64,000 nucleotides of DNA, from assembly GCA_025361335.1 (NCBI GenBank), contig JANYAK010000033.1, forward strand, positions 21,246 through 85,245, given 5' to 3'. This DNA is from Coriobacteriia bacterium. GTDB taxonomy: Bacteria; Actinomycetota; Coriobacteriia; Anaerosomatales; PALSA-660. Position numbers and translations under genes: made by a program. This document shows, piece after piece, positions 18,763-50,977 of the stretch; position 1 is the stretch's first letter, and the number at the start of each line of letters is the position of its first letter. The notes under the pieces were generated by a model. That model searched no databases. It had not been told where the DNA came from and saw only the letters and a program-made list of their open reading frames with translations.

Positions 18763-20313
18763 TCAGGGCCTCGCGATGTTGCCCTTCATGATGTAGGCCA
18801 TGCCGCGTCCCGGCAGGCTCTCCGGCAGGTACTTGGGGAGATTCTCATTCATGAACAGATGCACGTTGTTCGCCGCGAAATACAGCTCCTTGGTGAGCAC
18901 CGACCCGCGTACCTGCTGGTTGGTGAGAAAGCCGACCTGCTCCTGCCCGTACAACGCTCCGGCGAATTCGGGAGTCGGGGTCAGATCCTTCGGATTGCCG
19001 TTCGCGGGGCTGATCTGGATGGAGATCTTGCCTGGAGTGACTAGACCCAGAGCCTCGCCGTTGGACTGCATGGCGGCCCATCCCGGATTGAGTGGATACA
19101 CGGGGCATGTGATGAAGATGTCGCCGTTGGCGACGATGGTGCCGTTACCGACGTACTTGACCGGCCCGCCTTCGAACTTCACGTCGCCGTCGACGAACAC
19201 CGTTCCCTCGACATAGAGGGTCTTGCTGCCGTCCACGACGTTGTACACGTAGGCGAAGTCGTCGTGCACGGTCGTGTTGAACTGGTTCGTGTAGCCGGCC
19301 TTACCGAATGAATCGGTACCGCCGATCACGAGAGCGGGTGTGCGGGCGCTGGGCCACGGCCCGGCCCACGCCGTCGTGGGCCCGGTGGTGGTGCCGATGA
19401 CCTTGTAGTATGCGGATGCATTGGGCGCCTTCACGCGAGGACCGGGTGGTGTCAGCGCGGCGTACGTCGCGGGATCCCCGCCCGTCGCTTCCTTGTTCTC
19501 GGTCGTCGCGAGATCCGGGCCCATCTTGTTGTCCGTCGACTGCCTCTTGGCCTTCTCATACATGGTGGTGAGGTACACCAGGTCGAGAGGCGGGAGCGTG
19601 ATCCTGGGGACGGACGACGACACGTACGAGTAGTGCCCGCCCTTGGGCGTCGCGTCACCCGCATCGGGCGGATAGGACTTCTCGCAGAACAGCCGGATCT
19701 TCTCAGCGGGTGTCCCGAGGTGCGAATCCCCAGCGAGGCTGATGTCGCCGTTCTTGACGAACAGCGGGCCCTTCTCGATGTTGGCTCCACCGCCAAGCTG
19801 TATCGAGCCGGCCACGTAGAGCGGCCCATACACGTTCCCCGTCCCCTGGACGCCGCCGCCGCCGGCTGTCATGGAGCCGGAGCCGACGCTGAACTCCCAC
19901 AGGTTCATGTAGAAGAACTTCGTCTGGATGATCTCGGCGGCACCGCGGCGAGACAGCCCTCGGGACACGGCCTCGACCTCCGAGAAGGGCTTGGGCGTGA
20001 GGGTCACCACGTAGGAGCCGCCGCCTGTCACGGCGCCGGTGACCACCATCGGCGGCTGCCCTACGGCCGGGAGCCCGCCCATGGTCTGTATCTTGGACAG
20101 GGCCGCGTCCAGACCGGCGCTGGCGACCTGATAGGCATCGGACTTCGTCTGCGTGTTGCCCGCTTCCGTCAGGGCCTGACCGCCCAGCCAGAACGCCATG
20201 ACGGCGAGTACCGTCATGAAGGAGATGACGCCCATGACGATGACCATGGCTACGCCACGATCATCTCTCAGCGTGTCGCGCACGTGCTCGTTCACAGGGA
20301 CACCAGCTCTCAC
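18763..20313 (-). CDS. Large PilX-N-terminal-domain protein (putative pilus tip/minor-pilin-associated protein)
   Basis: 516 aa. The N-terminus 'RDDRGVAMVIVMGVISFMTVLAVMAFWLGG' is a PilX_N-type hydrophobic segment without Glu+5. The C-terminal ~350 aa carries repetitive G-x-V/I beta-strand patterns such as 'GTVFVDGDVKFEGGPVKYVGNGTIVANGDIFITC'. GTGA overlap with the upstream minor pilin gene. Confidence 0.6.
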   Translation of the reverse strand: MRAGVPVNEHVRDTLRDDRGVAMVIVMGVISFMTVLAVMAFWLGGQALTEAGNTQTKSDAYQVASAGLDAALSKIQTMGGLPAVGQPPMVVTGAVTGGGSYVVTLTPKPFSEVEAVSRGLSRRGAAEIIQTKFFYMNLWEFSVGSGSMTAGGGGVQGTGNVYGPLYVAGSIQLGGGANIEKGPLFVKNGDISLAGDSHLGTPAEKIRLFCEKSYPPDAGDATPKGGHYSYVSSSVPRITLPPLDLVYLTTMYEKAKRQSTDNKMGPDLATTENKEATGGDPATYAALTPPGPRVKAPNASAYYKVIGTTTGPTTAWAGPWPSARTPALVIGGTDSFGKAGYTNQFNTTVHDDFAYVYNVVDGSKTLYVEGTVFVDGDVKFEGGPVKYVGNGTIVANGDIFITCPVYPLNPGWAAMQSNGEALGLVTPGKISIQISPANGNPKDLTPTPEFAGALYGQEQVGFLTNQQVRGSVLTKELYFAANNVHLFMNENLPKYLPESLPGRGMAYIMKGNIARP

Positions 20314-20903
20314 TCCGTGGCGCGGTTTCGCAGGTACACGGTCTGGGACGTCTCAAAGTCCGACCCGCGGGCGCGAAGTGCCAAGGTCATCACTATCGTG
20401 CGCGCGGCCGAGGGCGCCACTTCGGCGATCTGCGCGCCTGTGAGCTCGGTGCGGTCGTCGCGGTAGTAGCGGAACAGCGACACGCCCTTCGACACGTTCA
20501 CGCATGAATCCGAGTAGCGGAAATCCACGCGCGGAGCCACGGTCGTGTTCACGAAGGCGCTGTTGATCGACCACTCGCGATACCGGATCCATCCGGCCGA
20601 CGTAGCATCGACGATGATGCGCTGACCGGTGCCGTTCATCTGGCGATCCGTGCGGAACGTGACGGACTGCGCGGTCGTGTTCTCGAGCTGGATCGCCTGC
20701 ATGAGCTGCCTGATGATGAGCCGCATCGGCTCACCGGAATCGCGCGCGAAGATGGACTGCGACTCGCTGACCTGAGCCGCCATGATCATGGCGTTCGACG
20801 CGGAGTATATGGCGGCAAGCACGACGCCCATCAGCCCGAGCACGATCATCAACTCGGTGAGCGAGAAGCCCTCGTCACGCGCCCTGAAGCGTCCGCCACT
20901 CAT
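20310..20903 (-). CDS. Minor (pseudo)pilin with prepilin N-terminal cleavage/methylation motif
   Basis: 197 aa. 'RARDEG|FSLTELMIVLGLMGVVLAAIY' shows Gly-1, Phe+1 and Glu+5. Confidence 0.8.
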   Translation of the reverse strand: MSGGRFRARDEGFSLTELMIVLGLMGVVLAAIYSASNAMIMAAQVSESQSIFARDSGEPMRLIIRQLMQAIQLENTTAQSVTFRTDRQMNGTGQRIIVDATSAGWIRYREWSINSAFVNTTVAPRVDFRYSDSCVNVSKGVSLFRYYRDDRTELTGAQIAEVAPSAARTIVMTLALRARGSDFETSQTVYLRNRATE

Positions 20904-22555
20904 CAGAACGAGTCACTCCCGGGAAGCGCCGCGGCGGTGGCCGCGACCGTCGCCGGTACCGGCCCCACGACGTGGGATTCGATCGTGCGCGACGTGGCGT
21001 CCTTGTTGCCGCCGGGGGTGAACGTCACAACGTACTTGTAGTAGTAGGCGGCCACGACGGCCTTGTTACCCAAGGCCTCGTCCGACCGGGTGTACGTCGG
21101 GCCCGCCGCCGCGAACTGGTTCGCGGCGTCGCCGGCCGGCCACGTCACCCCATTGGTGCTGCGCCACACCTGGTAGCTGATCGCCGACGTCGAGAACGTC
21201 GGCGGGGTGATCGCCAGCGTGAGATTCGTCGTGATCTTCTCATTGCTGCCGCTGCCCGTCTTGGTGCTTTGGTAGGTGCCCTTGATCTTGGGCCGCGTCA
21301 CCAGCGGGACGACCGTCTGGTCCGTCATGCCGCCGTTGGCGGATGGCGACTGGCCGAACGAGTTCGCCGGAAGGATCCTGAACCAGTACCGCGTGAACGG
21401 GAGGGCGCTGGTCCACCGATACGAGGGCGCAGCGGGATCATAGGTGGGCGACACGAAGTGCACCGCGCCGGAGTCGGGCACGTCGTTCCAGCCGGTCGGC
21501 CCGCTACCAGCGATGGGAGTGCCGCTCACGCCGGCCCTGTCGGACCACGGATGGACCGTGTAATAGGTCGCGTAGTCGCTCACCCCCGCGCCATCCATGG
21601 ACGGACCCCACGCGATCGTGATCGTGTGGTCGCTGTTCTCGACGGGCACCGGCGGGCTGGAACATGCGGTCGGCGGCTGGTTGTCGATGGTCACCCAACG
21701 CTCGACCGTCCCGGGGCGCGACTGGTTGTCATAGGCGACGATGTAGATCTTGCGCTGGCCATCCGGGTAGTAGGGAGTGCCGTCCGCCTGAGTCGCCAAG
21801 GTGTTCCAGTAGAACGAGTACGTCCCACTCTGGACGGCGAGGTCGATCCACTCGCCTGTCGTCCCTGAGTTACTGGGAATCCCCCCGCCGGCCCCGAACA
21901 GCACGGGGACCCCGCAGAACATCTGGAGCCGCTTGATCGTCCCGCCCGTGTTAGGCGTCGACACGTGCGCCGTGACCATGATGCTGTTGCCGCGGATGAC
22001 CGCTCCCGAGGCCGGAGCCTGTCCGTCCACGAACGAGATGACCGGCACGGCCGTCCCCCCGGTGCCGCCCGTGGTCCCACCCGGGATCGCGACGATCTCG
22101 CCCGGTGCGCGGACATAGGTGGCGTAGGTCTGGACGACCGGGCGGCGGGTGAGCGCCCCCACCGAGACCACGACGACGACCTGCTTGTAGTTCTGGACCC
22201 CTGAGATCGCGGGGTCATCGACCCAAGTGACCGTGGGGGTGATCGTTATCTCGAAGCTGCCGCTACGGGCGACGGTGTTCACGGGCAGGCTGCCCTCGAT
22301 GGAGCCGCCAGCGCCTCCCGCCACCCCGACACTGGCGAATGGCATCGATCGCACGGCCTCGAGGTACGAGTGCGACGCGGCGGTCGCCACGTTCTGCTCC
22401 TTGGCTTGCACGCTCATCTGGGTCGACTTGAGGAGCAGCCCGAGTAGCGCGCTGACGGCGATGAGAAGGATGACCGCCGCGATCATGAGTTCGAGGAGGG
22501 TCATGCCCGCGTCGCCGCGGCACCAGGTCCGGATGCGACCCATCGCGCCTGTCAT
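20903..22555 (-). CDS. Large PilV-like minor pilin with C-terminal Ig/FN3-like domains
   Basis: Track ORF extends to 22648. ATG at 22555 (M32) is preceded by GGGAGGAG 6 nt upstream. Leader MTGAMGRIRTWCRGDAG|MTLLELMIAAVILLIAVSALLGLL has Glu+5. An FN3-like signature 'ITIAWGPSMDGAGVSDYATYY' is present. 550 aa. Confidence 0.7.
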   Translation of the reverse strand: MTGAMGRIRTWCRGDAGMTLLELMIAAVILLIAVSALLGLLLKSTQMSVQAKEQNVATAASHSYLEAVRSMPFASVGVAGGAGGSIEGSLPVNTVARSGSFEITITPTVTWVDDPAISGVQNYKQVVVVVSVGALTRRPVVQTYATYVRAPGEIVAIPGGTTGGTGGTAVPVISFVDGQAPASGAVIRGNSIMVTAHVSTPNTGGTIKRLQMFCGVPVLFGAGGGIPSNSGTTGEWIDLAVQSGTYSFYWNTLATQADGTPYYPDGQRKIYIVAYDNQSRPGTVERWVTIDNQPPTACSSPPVPVENSDHTITIAWGPSMDGAGVSDYATYYTVHPWSDRAGVSGTPIAGSGPTGWNDVPDSGAVHFVSPTYDPAAPSYRWTSALPFTRYWFRILPANSFGQSPSANGGMTDQTVVPLVTRPKIKGTYQSTKTGSGSNEKITTNLTLAITPPTFSTSAISYQVWRSTNGVTWPAGDAANQFAAAGPTYTRSDEALGNKAVVAAYYYKYVVTFTPGGNKDATSRTIESHVVGPVPATVAATAAALPGSDSF

Positions 22556-22682
22556 CTTTCTCCTCCCCTTCCGTCGCAGCAGCGGTCGCCCGAACGGCGC
22601 CACGACGGAATCCGGGCGCTCTTCCGTTCTCATTATCGTCCGATTCACGAGACTTCATGAGTCGCTCGCGACGGGCGACTGA

Positions 22683-24216: not shown

Positions 24217-25431
24217 CTACTTGACCAGAGTGATGACCTCGAACATCGGCATATACAGCGCGATGACGATCCCGCCGACCAAGAGGCCCATGACGGCCAT
24301 CATCACGGGCTCGATCACCGACGTGAGGCCGTCGACCGCGGCCGCGACCTCTTCGTCGTAGAAGTCGGCGATCTTGTTCAGCATGGCGTCGAGTGCACCG
24401 GTCTCCTCGCCGACCGCGATCATCTGGACGAGCATCGACGGGAACACGGGGGATTCGGCCAGCGGCTTGGCGATCGTCTCGCCCTCCTTGATGGCCGAAC
24501 GGACCTTCTTGACGGCCCGCGACACGACCTCGTTGCCGGACGTGGCTCCCACGATCTCCAGCGCGGAGAGGATGGGCACGCCGGCGGAGACGAGCGTCCC
24601 GAAGGTCCGCGTGAACTTGGCGAGCGCGATCTTGCGCACGATCGATCCGAACAGCGGCGCCCGCAGCTTGATGCCGTCCCACATGAAGAGACCGGCATCA
24701 GTGCCCTTCCACCAGCGGAACAGGAAGTTGAATCCGAAGATGCCGACGACGACCGCCAATCCCGGCCAGCTGCGTGCGCCCGCTGAGATGTTCACGAGGA
24801 TCTGCGTCGGCAGGGGCAACTGGCCGCCCATGGACGCGAACATGCCCTGGAAGACGGGGACGACGAACACCATCATGGCGATGAGGATCGTCAGGACGAG
24901 GGCCCCCATGGCGACAGGGTAGGTCATGGCCGACTTGATCTTGCCCTTGAGGAGCTGCTCGCGCTCGAAGTGGTCGGCGACGCGGCTCAGCACCTCGTCG
25001 AGGACGCCGCCGGTCTCGCCCGCGCGGACCATGTTGACGAAGATCGGGGGGAACACCTTGTTGTGTCGCCCCATCGATTCGGAAAGGGACTGACCCGACT
25101 CGACGTCCCTTCCCACCTGTGCGATGACGGTGCGGAGGCCGTCACTCTCAGTCTGCTGGCCAAGGATGGCCAGGCACTTGGTGAGAGACAGCCCGGCGTT
25201 GATCATCGTGGAGAACTGACGCGCGAAGATGGTGATGTCCTTCACCTTGATGCCGGTGCCGAACTTCACGGCGCTGAGCTGCGCGAGAAGACCGCCGCCC
25301 TCTTCGAGGCTGACGATCACATAGCCCATCTGGCGCAATCGGCCGGATACGGCTTCCTTGCTGTCGCCTTCGAGAGCGCCGTCGACGGTCTTACCCGCCT
25401 TGTCGCGCACCGTGTATCTGTAGGTGGGCAT
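24217..25431 (-). CDS. pilC: Type IV pilus platform protein PilC (GspF family)
   Basis: 404 aa. Starts 'MPTYRYTVRDKAGKTVDGALEGDSKEAVSGRLRQMGY'. Two GspF repeats and three TM regions. Confidence 0.9.
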   Translation of the reverse strand: MPTYRYTVRDKAGKTVDGALEGDSKEAVSGRLRQMGYVIVSLEEGGGLLAQLSAVKFGTGIKVKDITIFARQFSTMINAGLSLTKCLAILGQQTESDGLRTVIAQVGRDVESGQSLSESMGRHNKVFPPIFVNMVRAGETGGVLDEVLSRVADHFEREQLLKGKIKSAMTYPVAMGALVLTILIAMMVFVVPVFQGMFASMGGQLPLPTQILVNISAGARSWPGLAVVVGIFGFNFLFRWWKGTDAGLFMWDGIKLRAPLFGSIVRKIALAKFTRTFGTLVSAGVPILSALEIVGATSGNEVVSRAVKKVRSAIKEGETIAKPLAESPVFPSMLVQMIAVGEETGALDAMLNKIADFYDEEVAAAVDGLTSVIEPVMMAVMGLLVGGIVIALYMPMFEVITLVK

Positions 25432-25632: not shown

Positions 25633-27306
25633 CTAGACGATGACCCTCGTGATCTCCTCGATCGACGTCTGGCCCAAGCGGCATTTCTCAAGGCCGTCTT
25701 CCCGCAGGGTCATCATGCCTTGCATGATCGCGACCTTCTTCACTTCCTCGGCGGTGGCGTCCTCGACGGCCAGCCGGGAGATCTCCTCCGACATCAGGAG
25801 CACCTCGTGGACGCCCATGCGACCTCGATAGCCCGTGCCGCCGCACTTCTTGCAGCCTTTCGGCCGCCACAGCTTGTCGGGAAGGTTGTCGGGGTTGTAT
25901 CCCGCGTCGAGGAGGACCTGCTTGATGGGCACGTACTCCTCTTTGCAGTCGGAGCACAGGCGCCGCGCCAGGCGCTGGCCCAGGACGCAGTCGAGAGCGG
26001 ACGAGACGAGGAACGGCTCGACGCCCATCTCGACCAGTCGGGTGACCGCGCCCGCCGCGTCGTTGGTGTGCAGTGTCGACAGCACGAGGTGGCCGGTGAG
26101 CGCCGATTCGATGGCGATCTTGGCCGTCTCCTGGTCGCGGATCTCGCCCACGAGGATGACGTCGGGCGAGCACCGTAGGAACGAGCGCAGAGCGGTCCCG
26201 AACGTCAGACCCGCCTTCGCGTTCGTCTGGATCTGGTTCACGCCAGGCAGGCGGTACTCGACGGGATCCTCGGCCGTGATGATGTGGCGATGCGGCTCGT
26301 TGAGCACGTTGATCGCCGCGTAGAGCGACGTCGACTTCCCCGACCCGGTGGGGCCCGTGACGAGGATGGCACCGTACGGCTTGCGGAACGAGGATTCGAA
26401 CCGCTCGAGCGCGGTGGGCAGGAAGCCGAGATCCGACAGCTTGAGGAGGATGGAGTCTTTTCGCAGGATTCGCAGGACGACCCGTTCCCCGTACACCGTG
26501 GGCAGAGTCGAGACTCGGAAGTCGAGCTTGTGCCCGCTGATCGTGAGGGCGCAATGGCCGTCCTGCGGCTTGCGGGTCTCGGCGATGTCCATGTCCGCCA
26601 TGACCTTGAAACGGCTCAGGATCGCCGATTGGGTGGACTTCGGACTGTGCATCATCTCGTGCAGTACGCCGTCGATCCGGTAACGGATGCGCAGGTCGCG
26701 TTCCTGCGGCTCGATGTGGATGTCGGAGGCTCGATCCGCGACCGCCTTCGCGATGATGAAGTTGACCAGTTTCACGATGGGAGCGTCGGCGGTGACCTCG
26801 GACAGCTCGGACAGGTCGTCGGAGATCAGTTCCTCTACGCCGCCCCAGTCGTCCGTCTGGACATGTTCCGCCACCGTGTAGGCGTCCTCGATGACCGAGA
26901 GGATGTCATCCTTCGTCGAGATGGCAGGACGTATCTCGTACCCGGTGATGATCCGCAGGTCGTCGAGCGCGAGGACGTTCTGCGGATCGGCCATGGCGAC
27001 CAGCAGCCGGTTCTGCTCGTCGAATCCGACGGGCATCAGGACATATCGTGTCGCGAGCTCCTTCGGCACGATGGCGACGGCCGCCGGGTCCGGCTTCCGC
27101 TCGGCGAAGTCGACATAGGGGATGCCGATCTGCTGCGCCATCACGGCCAGGATCGACCCTTGCGTGGCGTATCCGAGCTCGACCAGGACGCGACCGAGCG
27201 GACTGTCCGTGGCCCGGTGGACCTCCACGGCGTCGTTGAGTTGACCTTCGGTGATGACACCGGCCTTCATGAGGAGCTGGCCGAGTCGTTCGCCGGCTTC
27301 TGCCAC
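25633..27306 (-). CDS. pilB: Type IV pilus extension ATPase PilB paralogue 1 (GspE family)
   Basis: Track ORF is 911 aa, but its first 354 codons are Arg/Gly-rich and run through two other genes. GTG at 27306 (V355) has GAAGAGGTG upstream and gives 557 aa. N-terminus 'RLGQLLMKAGVITEGQL...' is T2SSE_N/MshEN-like. Walker A 'GPTGSGKST', 'LVGEIRD', and a tetracysteine 'CSDCKEEY...CKKCGGTGYRGR'. Confidence 0.9.
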   Translation of the reverse strand: MAEAGERLGQLLMKAGVITEGQLNDAVEVHRATDSPLGRVLVELGYATQGSILAVMAQQIGIPYVDFAERKPDPAAVAIVPKELATRYVLMPVGFDEQNRLLVAMADPQNVLALDDLRIITGYEIRPAISTKDDILSVIEDAYTVAEHVQTDDWGGVEELISDDLSELSEVTADAPIVKLVNFIIAKAVADRASDIHIEPQERDLRIRYRIDGVLHEMMHSPKSTQSAILSRFKVMADMDIAETRKPQDGHCALTISGHKLDFRVSTLPTVYGERVVLRILRKDSILLKLSDLGFLPTALERFESSFRKPYGAILVTGPTGSGKSTSLYAAINVLNEPHRHIITAEDPVEYRLPGVNQIQTNAKAGLTFGTALRSFLRCSPDVILVGEIRDQETAKIAIESALTGHLVLSTLHTNDAAGAVTRLVEMGVEPFLVSSALDCVLGQRLARRLCSDCKEEYVPIKQVLLDAGYNPDNLPDKLWRPKGCKKCGGTGYRGRMGVHEVLLMSEEISRLAVEDATAEEVKKVAIMQGMMTLREDGLEKCRLGQTSIEEITRVIV

Positions 27307-27455: not shown

Positions 27456-28070
27456 CTAGGACTCGTCGACCTTCTTCAGATCCGCCAGAAGCGCGTCGGC
27501 CAGTCGCGTGAACCGCAGATGGGTGGGTGTGCCGGGCCGGACCCCTACGGCCTTCGAGCCGTCGGCAAAGCCGATCTCGACCGGCGCGACGAGGCGGCGC
27601 TCCGGCGGCGCGATGGAACCTGCAGATGTGGGAGCGGCGACGGGTCCGACGGGGAACCCCGTGGGCGCGATCGCCACGGCGGGCGGAAACTCGACCGCAG
27701 GCTCGAGGGCGGCGGGGACCTCGGGTACGAGGACCGTCTCGAGCACGCCCTCGCCCCCCGCGTCCGGCGCCCACGGGAACACGGGTTCCGGCTCCGGCTC
27801 GGGCTCCGGCGCGGCCTCCGGCTCGGGCTCGGGCTCGGGCTCCGGCGCGGCCTCGGGCTCCGGCTCCGGCTCCGGCTCCGGCGCGGCCTCGGGCTCGGGC
27901 TCGGCCGCCGGTGATTCGGGCGCCACCTTGTCGGGTGACAACGCCGCGACCTCGCGGCGTCGCCGCGCGAGCCGGCCTCTGACCTCCCATTGGACGTAGA
28001 AGACGACACAGCCGAGCAGCACTACGGCCGCCGCGAGCAGAACCGTGATCCATATCGCCATGTGGCTCAC
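27456..28070 (-). CDS. Single-pass membrane protein with ([12 protein letters not shown])x3 linker, function unknown
   Basis: 204 aa. N-terminal TM '[22 protein letters not shown]', basic stop-transfer '[10 protein letters not shown]', a Pro/Glu tandem repeat and an ~100-aa C-terminal domain. The start (GTG 28070 or ATG 28061) abuts the GTPase stop. Confidence 0.6.
27802..27909 (-). repeat. In-frame 36-bp tandem repeat x3 (encodes [12 protein letters not shown])
   Basis: The core 'ggctccggcgcggcctc' recurs at 27802, 27838 and 27874 (36-nt period), embedded in ggctc[cg]gg runs. Confidence 0.8.
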
Positions 28071-28627: not shown

Positions 28628-30286
28628 CTACAGGTGTCTGACGCCTTCGATGATCTTCATCATGAGTTCTCGGTCGACATGCATGTCGCGGTGCAGCGAC
28701 GCTCCCTCGATCGACGACTCCGGGGACTTCGAGATGCTCGCGGTCGGCCTCGCCCGGCTGTGTCCGCCCCCCGTCAACGCGGTGAGCTCGTCCCCGAGCC
28801 CGGAGGAGAACGACACGTCACCCGCATCGAATTCCGACAGGAAGGCGTCCGTCGAGATGACAGCGTCGGGCGCCTCCCCCGTCGCGGCCGCCTCGCCCGG
28901 CGTCGAGCCGGCGAGAGCCGCGGCCTCGATCTCGGCGATGGTCGGCTCGGGCTGGGCGTCGGACGGCGCGGCGGGCGCCTCTCCGAGTCCGAGAGCCATC
29001 AGGTCGACGGCGAAGTCACCGGTTCTCTCGGGAGCGGAGCCCGGGACCTCGGCGGGCGGGATGACCGAGGCCGGCTCCGAGGCCCGCGGATACCCCGCGG
29101 GCGACTCGACGGCGGTGTGTTCCAGCGTCTCGAGAAGGCCCGCAAGATCGAGCCCCGGGGCCGCCGGAGGGGCGAAGCTGGCGGGCACGTCCGCGGGGGG
29201 CGCGGTCCAAGCGCTCGCGGACGACACGCCGGGCGGCGTCTGTGACTCGAGTCGAGGCTCGACGCTCGGCACGGGCGCCCGTGGCGTTGTCGCCGGTGTC
29301 GCTTGGACAGCCGTGGAAGGATCGAGCACCGCGCCCAGCATCTGCTGGAACACCGCCATGTCGTCGACCGTGGCCGCTCCTTGACCCGCGCTCAGGAAGG
29401 CGGGCTCCTCGGCAACGCGGTCCGGCGCGCCCTCCCGCGGGGCGGACGCGCCGGTCGCCGCCGGAGGAGCGGTGACTTGGACGGCCGCCTCCTGCGCCCT
29501 CCTGAGGCCGTCGGCGGCGATCACCATCTCCGTGGCGGCCCGCTCGGCACGCAGGCGCTGCACCTCGGCTTCGGACGCAACCTCGAGAAGGCCCGCGGAG
29601 AAGAGCCCGTACAGGACGCGGGCGACCTCGAAGTCGGTCCTGTCGAGCTCGCGCGCGAGGTCGGACACCGCTCGCGTCCCATCGATCCTGAGCAGGATGT
29701 TCCACTCGGCGGGCTTCAACGAGATGTCGAACGTGCCTTCGCCCGGCGCGGTGGCCATCTTGAACACGACACCCATCGACGGGATCTTCTTCTTGATGCG
29801 GGTCCATTCCTCGAGGCGCCTCGACCCCTCCATGACGATGTTCTCTATGGAGACGGACAGCCCGATGTCCTCTTCGGGCGCCTCCGCGAGGTCTTCGAAG
29901 TCGAAGTCGCCCTCGTCCCATCGGAACAGATCGAAGATGGTGTCCTGGATCTGCTCCTGAACGAAGGACTCCAGCACCTTGTCGGTCGTGTAGCCCTCGT
30001 CCACGAGGATCTGCCCGAGCCTGCGACCGCCGGGCGGCTCGATGCGCTGCAGGTCGAGCGCCTTGGCCAGCGCGCTGGGGGTTATGCGGCCGCCGGTGAC
30101 CAACCTGGTGCCCAAAGGCTCCCTGTGCCAGTCGGACTGGGCGAAGAACACGTTCCCCTCGCGGAACCACACGCTGCCCTCGGCATCAGCGCGCTTGATG
30201 CGCAGGACTCCCGTCTTCCCGCTCAGAGTCACGAGCTGGAAGACATCCGGCAGGCTGAAGTCCCTGAGGTTGCCGCGTAGTGCCAT
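28628..30286 (-). CDS. DUF4388 (PATAN-like) domain protein with tandem MshEN-like motifs, HTH-like segment and long Ala/Pro-rich tail
   Basis: Track ORF extends to 30388. ATG at 30286 (M35) gives 552 aa starting MALRGNLRDFSLPDVFQLVTLSGKTGVLRIKRADAEGSVWFREGNVFFA, which I recognise as a DUF4388 N-terminus. It is followed by PLGTRLVTGGRITPSALAKALDLQ...RLGQILVDEGYTTDKVLESFVQEQ and then 'ILLRIDGTRAVSDLARELDRTDFEVARVLYGLFSAGLLEV'. Confidence 0.75.
   Translation of the reverse strand: MALRGNLRDFSLPDVFQLVTLSGKTGVLRIKRADAEGSVWFREGNVFFAQSDWHREPLGTRLVTGGRITPSALAKALDLQRIEPPGGRRLGQILVDEGYTTDKVLESFVQEQIQDTIFDLFRWDEGDFDFEDLAEAPEEDIGLSVSIENIVMEGSRRLEEWTRIKKKIPSMGVVFKMATAPGEGTFDISLKPAEWNILLRIDGTRAVSDLARELDRTDFEVARVLYGLFSAGLLEVASEAEVQRLRAERAATEMVIAADGLRRAQEAAVQVTAPPAATGASAPREGAPDRVAEEPAFLSAGQGAATVDDMAVFQQMLGAVLDPSTAVQATPATTPRAPVPSVEPRLESQTPPGVSSASAWTAPPADVPASFAPPAAPGLDLAGLLETLEHTAVESPAGYPRASEPASVIPPAEVPGSAPERTGDFAVDLMALGLGEAPAAPSDAQPEPTIAEIEAAALAGSTPGEAAATGEAPDAVISTDAFLSEFDAGDVSFSSGLGDELTALTGGGHSRARPTASISKSPESSIEGASLHRDMHVDRELMMKIIEGVRHL
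29951..30118 (-). other. Tandem MshEN-like 24-residue motifs inside the DUF4388 protein (possible c-di-GMP-binding module)
   Basis: Residues 57-80 and 89-112 both fit xLGxx[LVI][LVI]xxG..xxxxLxxx[LV]xxQ. See the corresponding finding. Confidence 0.45.
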
Positions 30287-30341: not shown

Positions 30342-31076
30342 CTAGCGCAGTGTCTCGCCGATCTCGGCGGCGGTCTGCCGCATGTCATAGATGATCAGAC
30401 CCAGCTTGCCGTCGGCATCCGCGAGGACCGTGAGAACGGCCCGGTCCCCGGCCGCCATGAGGAGGACGTATCCATCGGCCCCCTCGATGAACACCTGCGA
30501 CAGATGACCCCGGCCGAGCTCAGCGGCCGCCCGCTCACCGAGTCCGAGGATCGCCGCCGACATCGCGCCGACGCGATCCTCCTGCATGCCTTCCGGGAGA
30601 GCCGACGCCATGGTGAATCCGTCCAAGCTGACCAGAGCCGCCGCCTGGACGCCCGGGGAATGCTCCATGAGAGAGTCCAGGGCCCGCACGAGCCTCTCTT
30701 CGCGGTTGGCCGTCGGGACCACGCTCCCGGGACGCGGAACCGGGCTGACGACCGAGCCTGGGATGGGCGCGGCGGGTTCGGGCGCGACCGGCATGGCAGT
30801 CTGCGTGGTGGGCGCGTAGCTCACGGCCGGCGTGGCCGGCATGTAGCTCGCGGGCGGCACGGCCGGGGTGTACATGGCCGGCGGCGCGACCGGCTCGGCC
30901 GGGGTGTAGCTCACGGCCGGCGCGGCCGGGGTGTAGCTCACGGCCGGCGCGACCGGGGTGTAGCTCACGGCCGGCGCGACCGGCACGACGACCGGAGCGG
31001 CCGAGATGTCGCCGTCTTCGTCGTAACCTTCGTCGACGTCGCTGATGAAGTAATCGCCGATCCCCGCGTCTGTCAT
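30342..31076 (-). CDS. Roadblock/LC7 (MglB-like) domain protein with acidic N-terminus and Pro-rich 9-aa repeats
   Basis: Track ORF extends to 31133. ATG at 31076 (M20) has GGAGGTG 7 nt upstream and gives 244 aa. The C-terminal ~115 aa 'LDSLMEHSPGVQAAALVSLDGFTMASALPEG...AMSAAILGLGERAAAELGRGHLSQVFIEGADGYVLLMAAGDRAVLTVLAD' shows the Roadblock/LC7 pattern. Confidence 0.75.
   Translation of the reverse strand: MTDAGIGDYFISDVDEGYDEDGDISAAPVVVPVAPAVSYTPVAPAVSYTPAAPAVSYTPAEPVAPPAMYTPAVPPASYMPATPAVSYAPTTQTAMPVAPEPAAPIPGSVVSPVPRPGSVVPTANREERLVRALDSLMEHSPGVQAAALVSLDGFTMASALPEGMQEDRVGAMSAAILGLGERAAAELGRGHLSQVFIEGADGYVLLMAAGDRAVLTVLADADGKLGLIIYDMRQTAAEIGETLR
30901..30981 (-). repeat. In-frame 27-bp tandem repeat x3, near-identical (encodes APAVSYTP[VA]); degenerate copies extend to ~30807
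   Basis: ggggtgtagctcacggccggcgcg[ga]cc occurs at 30901, 30928 and 30955, with one mismatch among the three copies. Confidence 0.85.
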
Positions 31077-31131
31077 GCGCGCCGCACCTCCACGGACCGC
31101 GGGCGCGGACAGCGCCCGAAGACATATCGAC

Positions 31132-31155
31132 ACACCTCAGCGCGCGCCGAGGTGT
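31132..31155. terminator. Hairpin between pilB2 and the Roadblock gene; T-tract on the plus-strand side
   Basis: acacctcagcgc/gcgccgaggtgt is an imperfect palindrome. It is followed on the plus strand by ccttttcttc and preceded on the minus strand by gaagaaaagg. Confidence 0.35.
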
Positions 31156-31234: not shown

Positions 31235-32911
31235 TCACACCACCACGCGCATGATCTCCTCGATCGACGTCATGCCGGACTTGACCTTGGCGAACCCGTC
31301 GTCCCTCAAAGTCATCATGCCCTCGGCGACGGCATGGCGACCGAGCTCGTCCGATGAGGCGTGCTCGACCGCGAGCCGCTCGAGCGATTCCGTCATCGTC
31401 ATGACCTCGTGGATCCCCATGCGGCCCTTGTAGCCGATGCCGCCGCACTTCTTGCACCCCTTGGCGCGATACAGCTGGGGCATGTTGCCCGGGTCGTAGG
31501 GGAATCGGATCCTATCGAGCGCCTCAGGCGTGGGCGTGTAGGCCTCCTTGCACGCCGGGCACAACCGGCGTGCAAGACGCTGCGCGAGAACGCAGTTGAC
31601 GGCCGACGCCGACAGGAAGGGCTCGATGCCCATCTCGGTGAGCCGCGTGATCGCGGACGGTGCGTCGTTGGTGTGCAGGGTCGAGAGCACGAGGTGACCG
31701 GTGAGGGCGGCCTCGATCGCGATCGTGGCCGTCTCCTTGTCCCGGATCTCGCCGATCATCACGGTGTCGGGGTCTTGACGCAGGATCGAGCGCAGCGCGG
31801 CGGCGAACGTGAGACCGGCGCGTTCGTGGACCTGCACCTGGCTGAGCCCGTCGAGCCGGTATTCGACCGGGTCTTCGACGGTGATGAGGTTCGTCTTCGG
31901 GTCGTTCGTCTTGTTGATGGCCGCGTAGAGCGTCGTCGACTTGCCCGATCCGGTCGGGCCCGTGACCAGGATGCACCCGTACGGCTTGGTGAGCGCGTCC
32001 ATGAGGCGCTCGAGCGGCTGCTGCAGGAAGCCGAGGTCCTCGAGCGACATCATGATGGAGCTTCTCCGCAAGAGCCGGATGACGCACATCTCCCCCTGCA
32101 CCGTCGGCAGGACCGCCACGCGGAAGTCGACCGGAGCGCCGTCGAGCACGACGCCGAATCGCCCGTCCTGAGGGATGCGCTTCTCGGCGATATCCATTCC
32201 CGAGGCGATCTTCACCCGGCTGATGAGCTGGCGATGCAGCTTCTTCGGGCTCTTGACGACCTCCTGGCACACGCCGTCGATGCGGTACCGGACGCGCAGC
32301 TCGTTCTCCTGGGGCTCGATGTATATGTCGCCTGCGCCCTGGCGGATCGCCTCGGTGATGATGAGGTTCATGAGCTTGGCCACGGCCGACTCCTCGCCGG
32401 ACTCGACCGCCTCCTCCTCGTCGGCGCCTCCCTTGGCCATCGAACCTGTCACGTCGCCGACCATCTCTTCGACGTCGGTCTGCATCGAGGAGTACTTCTC
32501 TATGGCCTGCAGCAGGTCGCTCTCGGTAGCCACGACAGGCCGTATCTCGTAGCCGGTGACGATCCTGAGGTCGTCGATGGCGAAGATGTTGGCCGGGTCC
32601 GACATGGCCACGACGAGCTCTTCATCCTGGAACGCGATCGGCAGGACGCTGTAGCGGCGGCACAGATCGGTGGCCAGCGCCGTCGCCGCATGCGCGTCGA
32701 CCTCGTAGCCGGCGATGTCCACGAAGGACAGCCCCATCTCGTCCGCGACCGCTTGGGCGATCTTGACCTCCGTGGTAAGGCCCAGCTGGACGAGCGATTG
32801 CGACAGAGTGGCGCCCTCGGCGCCCGCCATCGCCTCTTCGAGCTGCGGCTCGGTGATCACGCCGGCCTTCACCAGTATCCTGCCGAGCCGCTTGCCGCTC
32901 GCGGCCGTCAC
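31235..32911 (-). CDS. pilB: Type IV pilus ATPase PilB paralogue 2 (GspE family)
   Basis: Track ORF is 641 aa, and its first 83 codons overlap aroE. GTG at 32911 (V84) overlaps the aroE stop (GTGA) and gives 558 aa. N-terminus 'RLGRILVKAGVITEPQLEEAM', Walker A 'GPTGSGKST', 'MIGEIRD', and tetracysteine 'CPACKEAY...CKKCGGIGYKGR'. Confidence 0.9.
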   Translation of the reverse strand: MTAASGKRLGRILVKAGVITEPQLEEAMAGAEGATLSQSLVQLGLTTEVKIAQAVADEMGLSFVDIAGYEVDAHAATALATDLCRRYSVLPIAFQDEELVVAMSDPANIFAIDDLRIVTGYEIRPVVATESDLLQAIEKYSSMQTDVEEMVGDVTGSMAKGGADEEEAVESGEESAVAKLMNLIITEAIRQGAGDIYIEPQENELRVRYRIDGVCQEVVKSPKKLHRQLISRVKIASGMDIAEKRIPQDGRFGVVLDGAPVDFRVAVLPTVQGEMCVIRLLRRSSIMMSLEDLGFLQQPLERLMDALTKPYGCILVTGPTGSGKSTTLYAAINKTNDPKTNLITVEDPVEYRLDGLSQVQVHERAGLTFAAALRSILRQDPDTVMIGEIRDKETATIAIEAALTGHLVLSTLHTNDAPSAITRLTEMGIEPFLSASAVNCVLAQRLARRLCPACKEAYTPTPEALDRIRFPYDPGNMPQLYRAKGCKKCGGIGYKGRMGIHEVMTMTESLERLAVEHASSDELGRHAVAEGMMTLRDDGFAKVKSGMTSIEEIMRVVV

Positions 32912-35756: not shown

Positions 35757-36709
35757 GACGCCACCTCCTGCTCGGCTGACGGCCGAGCCAGCAGCCTCGC
35801 GAAGTAGTCCTCCAAGGACTCGCGCTTGGGGGTGACGGTCACCACGCGCCCTCCCGCGTCATCGACGGCATCGACCACCGCCCGAACGTCCGCGTCGAGC
35901 ACGGAGAACACCCACACGTCACCCGACACGGCGACATCGTCGGTGAGAGCGACCACGGTGGCGGGCAGCGCGCCCGGCAACCCGGTGGCGCGAACAGAGG
36001 TCCTGCCCGCGACGTTGAGCAGGTCGTCGAGCGGACCTTCGGCCGCCAGCCGCCCACGGTCGAGGATGGACACCCTGTCGCAGACCGCCTCCACCTCGGA
36101 CAGCTGGTGCGAGGACAGCAGGACGGTCACGCCCTCGTCCCTGAGGCCCATCATCAGGTTGCGCACGTCACGCTGGCCCACGGGATCGAGGCCCGAAGCG
36201 GGTTCGTCCAGGACCACGACCGTCGGCCTCCCGACGAGCGCCTGCGCGATCCCGAGCCGCTGCAGCATCCCGCGGGAGAACTCCGAGAGGCGCGCGTGCT
36301 CGTGTCGCCCGAGGCCGACGCGCTCCAGCAGATCGGCGATGCGCCCGTGACGCTCGGAGACCGGCACGCCGGCGAGACGCGCGTACAGGGTCATCGCCTG
36401 CGTCGCCGAGAGCTGACTCGGGAAGTAGGGCTGCTCGGGCAGGAAGCCCAGCCCGGCCCGGTTGGCCGGAACGCGGGACGGGTGACCGAGGATCTCGAAC
36501 TCCCCTGCCGTCGGCCGGACGAGTCCGAGCAGCATCTTGATGGTCGTGGTCTTGCCCGCCCCGTTGGGCCCGAGCAGACCATGGATCGCGCCTTCGGGGA
36601 CTTCGATGGACACGTCCTCGACCGCGATGCGGGCCCGCGCCCAGGGCGCGGAAGAGTAGACCTTGCGGGCGCCGGCGATGCGTATCGCGGGCACGTGGCC
36701 GTCGATCAT
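35753..36709 (-). CDS. ABC transporter ATP-binding protein
   Basis: 318 aa. Walker A 'GLLGPNGAGKTT', signature-like 'FSRGMLQRLGIAQAL', Walker B 'VVVLDEPASGLD' and H-loop 'LLSSHQL'. Confidence 0.9.
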   Translation of the reverse strand: MIDGHVPAIRIAGARKVYSSAPWARARIAVEDVSIEVPEGAIHGLLGPNGAGKTTTIKMLLGLVRPTAGEFEILGHPSRVPANRAGLGFLPEQPYFPSQLSATQAMTLYARLAGVPVSERHGRIADLLERVGLGRHEHARLSEFSRGMLQRLGIAQALVGRPTVVVLDEPASGLDPVGQRDVRNLMMGLRDEGVTVLLSSHQLSEVEAVCDRVSILDRGRLAAEGPLDDLLNVAGRTSVRATGLPGALPATVVALTDDVAVSGDVWVFSVLDADVRAVVDAVDDAGGRVVTVTPKRESLEDYFARLLARPSAEQEVAS

Positions 36710-37728
36710 TGGAGTCCCTTCTTCGCCCTTGCCTTGAGCGTGAGGAATTCGCCTTGCGTCTCCGCGAACGAATGAGTGCCGTCCTTGCCCGTCAGCACGT
36801 AGTAGAGGTACCCGGTCTCGGCGGGTGCGGCGGCAGCCTGCAGCGACGCGAGGCCCGGGCTGGCGATGGGGCCGGGCGGCAGACCCTTGTTCGCGTATGT
36901 ATTGTACGGGCTTCGGACCTTCAGGTCTCGGTACAGAAGCCGAGCCTTGTTGCCCAACACGTACTGAACCGTCGCGTCGATCTCGAGATACATGTCGCGG
37001 ATCAGCCGGTTGTAGATGACGGAAGCCACGAGGGGACGATCGGCGGAGACCCGTGTCTCACGTTCGATCATCGATCCGATCGTCACGAGCCCGTGCATGC
37101 TCACCCCGCGCGACTTCGCATACGACGGATCGATGCCTGATACCTCGCGCTCGAACTGATCGAGCATCACGGTCAGGACCTGGCGCGCGGTCGCGCCCGG
37201 CTGCACGCGGTACGTCTTCGGGAAGAGGTATCCCTCCAAGGAATCGGTCGGGTTGGACTCGAGGAACCGGAAGTGGAAGCTCTTGGCGCCCGTCGTAGCC
37301 AGAGTGGTCAGCTCGTCGCGGGGGATGCCCAGCGCCTCCTCCACACGCGCGGCCACCTGAGGGATCGTCCAGCCCTCGGGGATGGCCAGGGTGACGTATC
37401 GGACCTCGGGGCCTTTGCGCAGAGCCTCGAGGGCGGCCGAGTAGCCCATGCCCGTCCGCAGGTCGTAGACCCCGGGATGAAGCTGCTGCTCGGCGCCCGC
37501 GAGTTTGACCCGCAGCCGGAACATCTGGCCGTTGGCGACGATGCCCGCAGCAGCAAGGGCGCGGCCCGCGTCGAGCGATGTCGCCCCATCGGGGATCTCG
37601 ATCTGAGCGGGCAGCCCAGGGACGACCGTGCCGTCTCCGCTGAAGAGGGCGAGCCACATGCCCGCCGCCGCTATCGCCAACAAGAGCAGGGACGCCGCAG
37701 CCGCGACGGTCGCAGCCTTGCGCCTCAC
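36706..37728 (-). CDS. mltG: Endolytic murein transglycosylase MltG (YceG-like), paralogue 1
   Basis: 340 aa. N-terminal TM. Motifs 'IEIPDGATS', 'ERETRVSADRPLVASVIYNRL' and 'SPYNTYANKGLPPGPIASPG'. Confidence 0.9.
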   Translation of the reverse strand: MRRKAATVAAAASLLLLAIAAAGMWLALFSGDGTVVPGLPAQIEIPDGATSLDAGRALAAAGIVANGQMFRLRVKLAGAEQQLHPGVYDLRTGMGYSAALEALRKGPEVRYVTLAIPEGWTIPQVAARVEEALGIPRDELTTLATTGAKSFHFRFLESNPTDSLEGYLFPKTYRVQPGATARQVLTVMLDQFEREVSGIDPSYAKSRGVSMHGLVTIGSMIERETRVSADRPLVASVIYNRLIRDMYLEIDATVQYVLGNKARLLYRDLKVRSPYNTYANKGLPPGPIASPGLASLQAAAAPAETGYLYYVLTGKDGTHSFAETQGEFLTLKARAKKGLQ

Positions 37729-38981
37729 TTCAGCCCACTCTTCGCTCCGGCCTTCAAACGCAGGAACTCCGCGTAGCCCACCGCGAAGGACTGCGACCCG
37801 TCCTTGTGATCCATGATGTAGTAGAGGTAGTTGCTCTTCGCCGGCGCCGCCGCGGCCTGAAGCGCCGTCAGGCCGGGGCTCGCGATCGGGCCGGGTGGCA
37901 GACCTTCATGGAGGTACGTGTTGTAGGGACTCGGCGTCTGCAGGTCGGTGAGCAGGACCTTCTCCTTGCTGCCGATCACGTACAGGACCGTGGAGTCGAG
38001 CTGCAGGCGCATGTGGCTCGCCAGCCGATTGTAGATGACGGACGCGACGAGCGGACGGTCACGAGGCACGCTGGCCTCACGCTCGATGATCGACGCGATG
38101 GTGACCACGCCGTGCTGCGAGACACCCTTGGATGCGGCGTACGACAGGTCGAGGGCAGCGGTCTCCTTGCCGTATTGGGTGAGCATGAGGCGGATGACGT
38201 CCTCGGCCGTCGACTTCTCCTTGACCTCGTACGTCTTGGGGAACAGATAGCCTTCGACAGAGTCCGTGGGATCCGCCTTGAGGAACTCGAAGTCGAACGT
38301 CTTGGCGCCCGTCGTGGCGACCCGGGTGAACTCGTCACGCGGGATCCCGACCACCGACTCCACACGGGCGGCGACCTGCTTGACGGTCCAGCCCTCCGGG
38401 ATGGCCACCTTCGTGTACCGGATGACCGCGGGGCCCTTCTCAAGAACGGCGAAGACCGCGTCGTAGTCCGATCCAGTAGTGAGCGTGTACCTGCCGGCTT
38501 TGAGCCGGCTGCCCAAGCCCTCCGAGCGACCGAGGAAGTAGAACATCGTCCCATTGGCGACGATGCCCTTCTCGGCGAGCATGTCACCGACCTCGCGGCT
38601 CGACGCCCCCCTGGCCACGGTCACGCTCAGGCGACGCCCGGCAGGCACGTTCGACACGGGTCGGAAGAAGGTGTACCAGACTCCCCCGCCGCCAGCCGCG
38701 ACGACCGCTATGAGGAAGACGAGTGCCGCGACACATCCCCGTCGGCGACGTGGCGCGCGCCCGACGCGGCCGGCCCCTCGTCCGCGCGCGTCCGCGGCAT
38801 GGGACGCCGCGCCACCACGCCCGGCCCGTGAGCCAGCGCCGCGGCCGGCGCCCGAACGGCGGGAACCGGACCCGCGCGACGGGAGCGGCGGCCCCGGAAT
38901 GTCCTCATCGTCGTACGTATGCGGATCGAGCCCCGGGCCCTGCGGACCGGGAGCGTCGTCCATGTCGCGATCGTCTGTCAC
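37725..38981 (-). CDS. mltG: Endolytic murein transglycosylase MltG (YceG-like), paralogue 2 with ~95-aa disordered cytoplasmic N-terminus
   Basis: 418 aa. An acidic then Arg/Gly-rich N-terminus is followed by TM 'VAALVFLIAVVAAGGGGVWYTFF'. Motifs 'EREASVPRDRPLVASVIYNRL' and 'SPYNTYLHEGLPPGPIASPG'. Confidence 0.9.
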   Translation of the reverse strand: MTDDRDMDDAPGPQGPGLDPHTYDDEDIPGPPLPSRGSGSRRSGAGRGAGSRAGRGGAASHAADARGRGAGRVGRAPRRRRGCVAALVFLIAVVAAGGGGVWYTFFRPVSNVPAGRRLSVTVARGASSREVGDMLAEKGIVANGTMFYFLGRSEGLGSRLKAGRYTLTTGSDYDAVFAVLEKGPAVIRYTKVAIPEGWTVKQVAARVESVVGIPRDEFTRVATTGAKTFDFEFLKADPTDSVEGYLFPKTYEVKEKSTAEDVIRLMLTQYGKETAALDLSYAASKGVSQHGVVTIASIIEREASVPRDRPLVASVIYNRLASHMRLQLDSTVLYVIGSKEKVLLTDLQTPSPYNTYLHEGLPPGPIASPGLTALQAAAAPAKSNYLYYIMDHKDGSQSFAVGYAEFLRLKAGAKSGLK

Positions 38982-50351: not shown

Positions 50352-50977
50352 CGCGCCTCGTCGCCGATCGTGGTGTCGGCGCCGTGGCCGGGATGCACCC
50401 GCGTCCGAGGGGGCAGGCCTGCCAGCGCGTCGCTTATCGAGCGGGCCAGCGCGCGCGCGTCTCCCCCCGCGAGGTCGGTCCGTCCGACCGAGCGGTAGAA
50501 CAGAGTATCGCCGCTGAACAGGTGGGGGTCGAGCCCCTGCTCCGCGCGTGCCGGGACGAAGAGGCAGATCCCCCCGGGGGTATGCCCGGGAGTGTGGAGG
50601 ACCTCCAGCCGAAGGCTCCCCGCCTCCACGACGTCGCCGCCGGAGAGCGACCGCGTCACGGGAGGAGCGACGCGGTCGAAGCCGAACTGGCCGCCGCCGT
50701 TGGCCCAGGAGTCCGTGACCGCCGCCGCGTCCATGTGATGCGCCAACAGCGGCGCGCCCGTGGCCTCGATGAGCGCGGCCGCGGCGCCGAGGTGATCGAA
50801 GTGGCTGTGGGTCAGCACGACGACGGTCACATCCCGCCCGCCTATCGAATCGAGCAGGACATCCGCCTCGTCCGCCGGATCGATCACGACGAGAGGTCCT
50901 CCGGCGCCGTCCGACACGAGCCAGCAGTTCGTGTCCAGGGTGCCGAGCACGAGGCGCTCGACCTCCACACCGCTCAC
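50315..50977 (-). CDS. MBL-fold metallo-hydrolase (glyoxalase II-like)
   Basis: 220 aa. Motifs 'VVVLTHSHFDHLG', 'HTPGHTPG' and 'GDTLF'. ATGA overlap with rel. Confidence 0.85.
   Translation of the reverse strand: MSGVEVERLVLGTLDTNCWLVSDGAGGPLVVIDPADEADVLLDSIGGRDVTVVVLTHSHFDHLGAAAALIEATGAPLLAHHMDAAAVTDSWANGGGQFGFDRVAPPVTRSLSGGDVVEAGSLRLEVLHTPGHTPGGICLFVPARAEQGLDPHLFSGDTLFYRSVGRTDLAGGDARALARSISDALAGLPPRTRVHPGHGADTTIGDEARLNPFWPREGRA

Follow-up and report, generated by a model that had tools for sequence, protein, structure and literature searches.

Can a scaffold protein that is not itself an ATPase bring cyclic di-GMP (c-di-GMP) into the control of a type IV pilus (T4P)? The question is raised by a 64-kb stretch of Coriobacteriia bacterium DNA (contig JANYAK010000033.1; positions 1–64000 are hereafter designated the window), in which a T4P cluster includes the gene of a 552-residue PATAN (PatA_N/DUF4388) protein. 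A first-pass annotation, made from the sequence alone, had claimed that this protein carries tandem motifs like those of MshEN, the c-di-GMP-binding domain at the N-termini of pilus ATPases such as Vibrio cholerae MshE. Far fewer receptors of c-di-GMP are known than enzymes that synthesize or degrade it, and PATAN proteins are known regulators of pilus motors, with no input signal known for those without a receiver domain. As described below, profile and fold comparisons confirm that residues 57–112 of the PATAN protein constitute a genuine MshEN_N-type module of two 24-residue motifs, and we consider it fairly probable that the four-helix bundle so formed, the 'alpha-clip' in the PATAN domain of this T4P-cluster scaffold, binds c-di-GMP. 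Residue numbers refer to this protein unless another is named.

An MshEN_N-type bundle inserted in the PATAN domain

The PATAN gene is read from the minus strand, and the ATG at 30286 is its true start (MALRGNL...), common to all homologues, including those at 72–89% identity. Pfam model PF14332 matched residues 4–161 on positions 1–121 of its 122 (E = 1.3e-34; 119.3 bits, the gathering cut-off being 25). The PATAN domain is ~37 residues longer than this profile, and the AlphaFold models show an alpha-helical insertion flanked by strands on both sides. Because strands of the PATAN core precede and follow it in these models (mean predicted local distance difference test score (pLDDT), 83.6 for residues 1–165 and 94.2 for residues 1–280), the bundle is regarded as an insertion in that core. 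Its helices are predicted at residues 58–64, 70–82, 90–96, and 102–121, with pLDDT values of 89–97 in the 280-residue model. According to Han et al., this alpha-helical insertion of PATAN was named 'alpha-clip' by Makarova et al. in 2006.

The motifs occupy window positions 29951–30118, which correspond exactly to residues 57–112 on the minus strand. The consensus of Wang et al. 2016, with which the motif given in the first-pass annotation agrees word for word, consists of two copies of RLGxx(L/V/I)(L/V/I)xxG(L/V/I)(L/V/I)xxxxLxxxLxxQ separated by 5 residues; together they make up a four-helix bundle of 53 residues that binds c-di-GMP. The PATAN motifs keep L2, G3, the hydrophobic residues at positions 6 and 7, G10, L17, L/V21, and Q24, and deviate at P57 (position 1), R67 (position 11), T100 (position 12), and V109 (position 21). 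When the regular expressions of Wang et al. were applied to the PATAN protein and to the two PilB-type ATPases of the cluster (PilB1 and PilB2), the strict form matched nothing and the relaxed form matched only motif II of PilB1; profiles were therefore used, the expressions being too brittle.

With NF053729, the NCBIfam model 'c-di-GMP_motif, MshE-related' (53 positions; curated cut-off, 38 bits), residues 57–112 scored 39.9 bits (E = 2.7e-10) in an alignment to the whole profile (positions 1–53), which exceeds the cut-off. Moreover, phmmer searches of Protein Data Bank (PDB) sequences with residues 1–162 returned Geobacter PilB (5zfr, 1.4e-4), Thermus PilF (6f8l, 3.7e-4), and MshE (5htl, 1.7e-3), in alignments that were in register with the motifs (P57, Q80, R89, and Q112 on R9, Q32, R38, and Q61 of MshE). 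A profile built from 18 homologues matched the same three proteins at 7e-16 (PilF), 3.6e-10 (PilB), and 8e-9 (MshE), and these matches were confined to profile positions ~48–120, essentially the insertion. Structure prediction, which had been suggested as a check, gave the four-helix bundle, and the best PDB match of the predicted model in Foldseek was MshE with c-di-GMP (5htl_B; 59 columns, root-mean-square deviation of 1.8 Å, 34% identity), followed by PilF GSPII-B with c-di-GMP at 2.0 Å. Finally, a regular expression for the core positions found four sites when the window was scanned in all six frames (a pair in the PATAN protein and a pair in PilB1) and had zero matches in 200 codon-shuffled windows.

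The claim that the DUF4388 protein carries tandem MshEN-like motifs is thus borne out, beyond chance, by four independent measures: the curated model, the sequence matches to solved structures, the predicted fold, and the core-position expression with its shuffled controls. The further expectation that a profile alignment would recognize it held for NF053729 and for the sequences of the solved MshE, PilB, and PilF, and failed for PF05157 (MshEN_C/T2SSE_N1), which had no match in the PATAN protein in the Pfam scan. PF05157, labeled 'MshEN' in Pfam (90 positions), is confined to the C-terminal subdomain, at residues 61–143 of PilB1 (26878–27126) and 59–144 of PilB2 (32480–32737); it was rejected as a test of the motif claim, since it covers that subdomain instead of the 53-residue motif, and NF053729 was used in its place. 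The Pfam label is thus uninformative on the c-di-GMP motif, and the supplement of Wang et al. 2016 records that an older Pfam model likewise misses it. The absence of PF05157 places the PATAN protein in the 'MshEN_N only' class of these authors.

Conservation of the motif pair across the family

A full HMMER scan of 1.84 billion representatives yielded 9,745 clusters (50% identity) with E ≤ 1e-3, of which 3,382 had E ≤ 1e-10. Among the 150 best matches, nearly all span residues 1–165 at equal length, the others being a few truncated fragments, indicating that the insertion is family-wide; NF053729 matched 49 of 51 sampled family members (best E = 6e-17). An alignment of 148 more distant domains plus the query, 149 sequences in all, places the motif positions among the most conserved: L2 (132), G3 (146), L6 (144), and L21 (135) in motif I, and R1 (135), G3 (144), L6 (146), G10 (127), L17 (137), and Q24 (137) in motif II, with a spacer mostly of 7 or 8 residues.

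Closer relatives were collected as 80 PATAN orthologues from species-representative genomes, mainly labeled Coriobacteriia or Actinomycetota/Actinobacteria (one is labeled Anaerosomatales, and a few titles of metagenome-assembled genomes (MAGs) differ). Motif II is invariant in 80/80 at R1, L2, G3, L6, L17, V21, and Q24. Motif I is equally firm at G3 and L17 (80 each) and nearly so at L2 (79) and L21 (77), and varies at position 1 (Pro 48, Leu 23), position 10 (Gln 39, Gly 20), and position 24 (Arg 50, Gln 21, His 7). The spacer has 8 residues in 72 orthologues and 7 in the remaining 8. The ligand-contact positions conserved in the PATAN family drift both in XpsE, a non-binder, and in PilB2; in the PATAN family they are conserved well past the requirements of the fold.

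PilB1 and PilB2 as an internal comparison

The N-termini of both ATPases are full MshEN domains, matching PilF, PilB, and MshE over ~140 residues with E values of 1e-15 to 1e-48, and their motif pairs have diverged. In 47 orthologues of PilB1, RLG is kept in 47/47, as are both position-3 Gly residues, and motif II has G3 and Q24 in 47/47 with a spacer of 5; traits specific to the lineage are a His at the end of motif I (45/47) and a Pro at the beginning of motif II. In 43 orthologues of PilB2, motif II never has Gly at position 3, motif I never has Gln at position 24, and the spacer is 3; motif II of PilB2 violates the relaxed pattern of Wang et al. at four positions. Published mutagenesis bears on the very positions that are kept in the one and lost in the other. 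Thus, G40E in a Deinococcus domain abolished c-di-GMP binding, XpsE lost binding via changes at the same motif positions, and in PilF GSPII-B a single Q-to-E change cost ~100-fold in affinity, and a double change abolished binding. On these grounds, binding is plausible for PilB1 and its absence plausible for PilB2: the sequence comparison suggests that PilB1 itself probably binds c-di-GMP directly and that PilB2 probably does not.

The first-pass annotation quoted the two PilB N-termini as they read in the translations. PilB1 carries a good copy of the motif pair, and that annotation's view of the second PilB2 motif as degenerate agrees with the NF053729 scores (Table 1); its suggestion that the two ATPases may differ in ligand sensitivity is backed by the lineage-wide decay in PilB2. 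Its count of three module-bearing proteins in the cluster has to be lowered to two by the curated threshold, since the PATAN protein and PilB1 pass and PilB2 scores below 38. The pair of ATPases, one with the motif kept and the other with the motif lost in every orthologue, offers a built-in experimental control. Neither a PilT-type retraction ATPase nor a third ATPase was found in the 64-kb window.

Proposed mode of binding and of coupling to the pilus motor

If the alpha-clip is a receptor, the bundle would bind one c-di-GMP monomer in the manner of MshE and PilF. The hydrophobic triads Leu58+Leu105+Val109 and Leu90+Leu73+Leu77 would stack on the guanines, Gly59/Thr60 and Gly91/Gln92 would read the Hoogsteen edges through their backbone amides, the ribose-phosphate ring would be held by Gln80 and Gln112, and the bases would be capped by Arg89 and Pro57. 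For the deviations at position 1 there is experimental precedent, because PilF GSPII-C, with Pro at this position, binds c-di-GMP with a dissociation constant of ~0.5 μM, and PilF GSPII-B, whose motifs start with Lys and Leu, binds at 6 nM; the extended consensus of PMC11731258 admits R/K/L there. The 5-residue spacer, as found in MshE, is a soft criterion, since the solved Geobacter PilB and PilF GSPII-C align with 7. Moreover, isolated MshEN_N binds c-di-GMP without the C-terminal subdomain.

Ligand binding may then alter how the PATAN scaffold engages the extension motor (PilB's N-terminal region and PilC's N-terminal domain), the MglA-like GTPase and Roadblock protein encoded beside it, or both, so that pilus assembly would be set jointly by the c-di-GMP level and the state of the GTPase. 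PATAN domains bind PilB1's N-terminal region and PilC's N-terminal domain in Synechocystis (Han et al.), and PATAN genes are known to adjoin those of MglA and MglB; an adaptor relaying both inputs to the motor is, on this basis, the simplest model. A bolder extension, which we regard as doubtful, is that PATAN proteins with a canonical alpha-clip are a large, experimentally unrecognized class of c-di-GMP receptors coupling the messenger to GTPase/Roadblock modules and T4P motors, and that PilB2 of these environmental Coriobacteriia, its own site lost, would be controlled in trans by the PATAN protein, whose gene lies two genes downstream of that of PilB2, past the Roadblock gene.

Points against binding, and alternative explanations

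Several observations weigh against c-di-GMP binding by the alpha-clip. In the protein itself, the strict consensus is matched by neither motif, the relaxed pattern of Wang et al. fails in both at one helix-packing position (R67 at 11; T100 at 12), Pro57 stands in place of Arg at the first position of motif I, the spacer has 8 residues (7–8 across the orthologues) as against 5 in the consensus, and the NF053729 cut-off is exceeded by only 1.9 bits. Among the 80 orthologues, the closing Gln of motif I is replaced in 59 (Arg or His) and the turn Gly is missing in 60. No GGDEF, EAL, or HD-GYP protein was detected in the 64-kb window by regular expressions and Pfam scans of proteins encoded there. 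In our literature searches we found no PATAN alpha-clip that had been experimentally shown to bind c-di-GMP. Cyanobacterial PATAN proteins have alpha-clips, yet a c-di-GMP census credits Synechocystis with 3 MshEN proteins only, so that having an alpha-clip does not by itself imply binding.

In the alternative that survives best, a possible explanation albeit not the one we favor, the alpha-clip would serve protein interaction independently of any ligand, as a mimic of the PilB N-terminus in which the motif residues are kept for folding and docking. Such a competition was proposed for PATAN alpha-clips by Han et al., and the binding of PATAN to the N-terminal parts of PilB1 and PilC was seen without added ligand. 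Many MshEN domains are known non-binders, for example, XpsE and PilF GSPII-A. The docking explanation stays alive because motif I drifts from the binding consensus, with Pro or Leu at position 1, Gln at position 10 in 39/80, and Arg at position 24 in 50/80, and because cyanobacterial PATAN proteins are not counted among the MshEN receptors. However, the surface-exposed Gln of motif II and both position-3 Gly residues, which are ligand contacts in MshE and PilF, are invariant in 80/80 orthologues, and exactly these positions decay in the non-binder XpsE and in PilB2, itself predicted from its sequence to be a non-binder. Docking and ligand binding, moreover, do not exclude each other, as c-di-GMP could gate the interaction.

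It is very unlikely that the bundle binds another cyclic dinucleotide or nucleotide, such as 3'3'-cGAMP, instead of c-di-GMP. MshEN has been reported to bind cGAMP, more weakly, and the asymmetry between motifs I and II could suit a mixed-base ligand, but recognition of guanine O6/N7 by backbone amides needs the position-3 Gly, a residue that neither motif has lost, the window gave no evidence of a cGAMP synthase, and the cited literature offers no precedent for an MshEN_N domain preferring another ligand. A chance resemblance, by which an amphipathic helical repeat would happen to fit a loose pattern, might be argued from the unmet strict consensus and from the relaxed expression matching neither motif, but it is refuted by the profile matches to solved structures (7e-16 to 8e-9), the curated model, the 1.8-Å superposition, the shuffled windows, and the family-wide conservation.

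Domain layout and gene neighborhood

Features of the PATAN protein and of the adjoining genes are collected in Table 1.

Table 1 Coordinates in the window of the PATAN protein, its parts, and the neighboring T4P genes.
Feature	Coordinates	Strand	Basis
PATAN (PatA_N/DUF4388) protein gene, 552 residues	28628..30286	minus	Pfam PF14332; GC content at third codon positions, 0.86
N-terminal half of PATAN core, residues 1–56: strand, helix, three strands	30119..30286	minus	Pfam + AlphaFold
Four-helix bundle ('alpha-clip', MshEN_N equivalent), residues 57–121, between strands 4 and 5 of PATAN core	29924..30118	minus	AlphaFold + Foldseek
MshEN motif I, residues 57–80, PLGTRLVTGGRITPSALAKALDLQ	30047..30118	minus	Aligned to MshE R9–Q32 and to NF053729
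Spacer RIEPPGGR, residues 81–88, loop between helices 2 and 3	30023..30046	minus	Sequence + model
MshEN motif II, residues 89–112, RLGQILVDEGYTTDKVLESFVQEQ	29951..30022	minus	Aligned to MshE R38–Q61
C-terminal half of PATAN core, residues 122–167: strand 127–132, helix 147–167	29786..29923	minus	Pfam + AlphaFold
Winged-helix-like domain, residues ~190–236, then long helix 239–271	29579..29719	minus	AlphaFold
Conserved extreme C-terminal peptide, last 21 residues, HRDMHVDRELMMKIIEGVRHL	28631..28693	minus	Family pattern
PilC (platform protein), immediately downstream of PilB1	24217..25431	minus	T2SSF 2e-69; in 31/31 loci
PilB1, T4P extension ATPase, 557 residues	25633..27306	minus	T2SSE 3e-138
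PilB1 motif pair, residues 7–59, spacer 5	27130–27288	minus	NF053729 53.0 bits, above cut-off 38
Small membrane protein, (EP)n repeat, between GTPase and PilB1 genes	27456..28070	minus	One N-terminal hydrophobic segment, EPEPEP repeats
Small Ras-superfamily GTPase, 181 residues	28071..28616	minus	Pfam ATP_bind_1 6e-19, Arf, Ras; adjoins PATAN gene in 31/31 loci
Roadblock/LC7 protein (MglB/CvnB-like), N-terminal Pro-rich tandem-repeat region, start codon uncertain	30342..31133	minus	Robl_LC7 6.5e-19
PilB2, second PilB-type ATPase, 558 residues	31235..32911	minus	T2SSE 7e-137
PilB2 degenerate motif pair, residues 8–58, spacer 3	32738–32890	minus	NF053729 34.9 bits, below cut-off 38

In the remainder of the PATAN protein, the winged-helix-like domain has weak matches only (PaaA-like_N, E = 0.013; MarR 7kua with the family profile, E = 0.006; winged-helix/MarR folds in Foldseek). 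Helix 239–271 is followed by a Pro/Ala/Glu-rich linker of ~260 residues. Across the family, the length of this low-complexity linker is very variable, and the pattern RD..VD+..hh.+II[DE]G[IV]+.L closes most of 143 family representatives regardless of their length (300–1450 residues). The C-terminal peptide is probably a docking helix for some partner.

On the minus strand, the order of transcription is aroE, PilB2, Roadblock/LC7, PATAN, small GTPase, small membrane protein, PilB1, PilC, pilin, and PilD, followed by three pilin-like proteins, PilM, PilN, and PilO, and then aroC, aroK, and aroB. The order aroE-PilB2-Roadblock-PATAN-GTPase-PilB1-PilC is kept in 31/31 species loci spanning 20 kb. 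The GTPase has a GPFNSGKT P-loop, and its G3 motif reads GTPGQ (TxxGQ), with the Thr for Asp that is a hallmark of the MglA family; its best PDB sequence matches are eukaryotic proteins (Rab, Arl, and Sar1) rather than MglA. The Roadblock protein, whose gene is likewise present in 31/31 loci, matched 7f8m (7e-27) and CvnB5 (3leq, 8e-9). Genes of a small GTPase and of a Roadblock/LC7 protein lie on the two sides of the PATAN gene in 31/31 loci; with the TxxGQ motif of the GTPase, the pair here has the sequence features of an MglA/MglB-type module, and the earlier remark that a non-ATPase scaffold adjoins a GTPase describes a strictly conserved arrangement. A homologue on a Chloroflexi contig keeps the trio PATAN-GTPase-Roadblock only. 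The small membrane protein was found by tblastn in 9/31 loci, probably owing to its low complexity.

Two tandem repeats lie in these genes: one at 30816–30984 (~27-nt period, ~6 copies), giving the Roadblock protein the P-A-V-S-Y-T-P repeats of its N-terminal region, and the other at 27782–27904 (6/12/36-nt period), encoding the (EP)n/EAAP repeats of the small membrane protein. The T4P cluster with its GTPase, Roadblock, and PATAN genes (12609–33864, minus strand) sits inside a shikimate-pathway set, with aroE upstream and aroC-aroK-aroB downstream; the aroE stop has a 4-nt overlap with the start of PilB2 (GTG at 32911), and the two genes are adjacent in 31/31 loci. Between PilD and PilM (18763–22648, minus strand) are encoded very large pilin-like proteins of 581 and 197 residues with N-terminal methylation motifs and a 516-residue protein without a Pfam match, a group that presumably comprises minor pilins or a tip complex.

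A PATAN paralogue of 249 residues (57% identical; PATAN, alpha-clip, and winged helix) heads a chemosensory cluster at positions 1–16750 of contig CAZWGV010000020.1 (locus L084), which further encodes CheR-TPR, REC, a 674-residue MshEN+T2SSE ATPase, two CheW, MCP, and CheA. As one Coriobacteria MAG carries both this paralogue and the copy in the pilus cluster (L045), no fewer than two PATAN proteins and three PilB-type ATPases exist in this lineage.

Comparison with known systems

The module itself is already known, from the 2006 link, the MXAN_3211 entry of Wang et al. 2016, and NF053729; what is new is the lineage and the gene context. Han et al. credit Makarova 2006 with relating the PATAN alpha-clip to the N-termini of type II secretion system and T4P ATPases. 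Among the close counterparts are Myxococcus xanthus MXAN_3211 and MXAN_1145, which have an equal arrangement: the motif pair begins around residue 50–58, and the PATAN strand comes next, reading DAFHWDGDFLF there and DLFRWDEGDFDF here. Wang et al. aligned residues 50–128 of MXAN_3211 as MshEN_N, and the following PATAN strand is visible in that alignment; they list both proteins as predicted c-di-GMP binders, with MXAN_3211 in the 'predicted c-di-GMP binding' column of their table, do not present them as insertions in PATAN, and have no entry for 'MshEN_N inside PATAN' in their table of domain architectures. MXAN_3211 was named a PATAN protein in a 2024 paper (PMC11580455). The Myxococcus protein belongs to Myxococcota and ours to Actinomycetota, and both are known as predicted binders from their sequences.

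With V. cholerae MshEN (5HTL) and Thermus thermophilus PilF GSPII-B/-C, the alpha-clip shares the two tandem 24-residue motifs, the four-helix bundle, the in-register alignment, the predicted-fold match at 1.8–2.0 Å, and position-1 Pro and Leu variants, which occur in binding PilF domains. In MshE and PilF, however, the motif pair lies in an N-terminal domain that is followed by MshEN_C (T2SSE_N1) and the ATPase, whereas here it is inserted inside the PATAN domain of a non-ATPase, with a spacer of 8 rather than 5. The extension ATPases PilB2 of Clostridium perfringens and MshE of V. cholerae carry an MshEN of their own, through which bound c-di-GMP stimulates pilus formation, a scheme into which PilB1 of this cluster fits; the differences are that the PilB2 paralogue here has lost its motif lineage-wide and that a separate non-ATPase protein of the cluster has a better copy.

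The cyanobacterial PatA-type regulators PixE, PixG, and LsiR (PATAN-REC) resemble the PATAN protein in their PATAN domain with alpha-clip and in their link to PilB1 and PilC. They belong to chemosensory systems and carry a C-terminal receiver domain, whereas the present protein has the winged-helix-like domain, a disordered linker, and the C-terminal peptide, and is encoded between the Roadblock and GTPase genes. Myxococcus MglA/MglB and the CvnD/CvnB proteins of actinobacterial conservons are alike in having a Thr-G3 GTPase beside a Roadblock/LC7 protein and in their link to T4P placement, but no RomR, RomX, SgmX, or histidine kinase is encoded nearby here.

Binding of c-di-GMP by the alpha-clip would give a very large protein family a ligand, the PATAN/MglA/MglB neighborhood a second-messenger input, and the Gram-positive Actinomycetota a c-di-GMP route to pilus control besides PilB itself. 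If the alpha-clip does not bind, the near-invariance of the motif positions still flags a functional surface.

Other genes of the window

The HD-domain protein at 59355–60065 was considered as an HD-GYP phosphodiesterase and rejected, as it has no GYP motif. The sole nucleotide-messenger enzyme seen in the window is a RelA/SpoT homologue (50974–53577). A 1209-residue fusion at 53252–56881 (minus strand) joins RecJ (DHH, DHHA1, and RecJ_OB) with HIRAN and DEAD/Helicase_C, an unusual nuclease-helicase in a single polypeptide. Finally, two tandem YceG/MltG paralogues of 340 and 418 residues, whose stop and start codons overlap, are encoded at 36706–38981 (minus strand).

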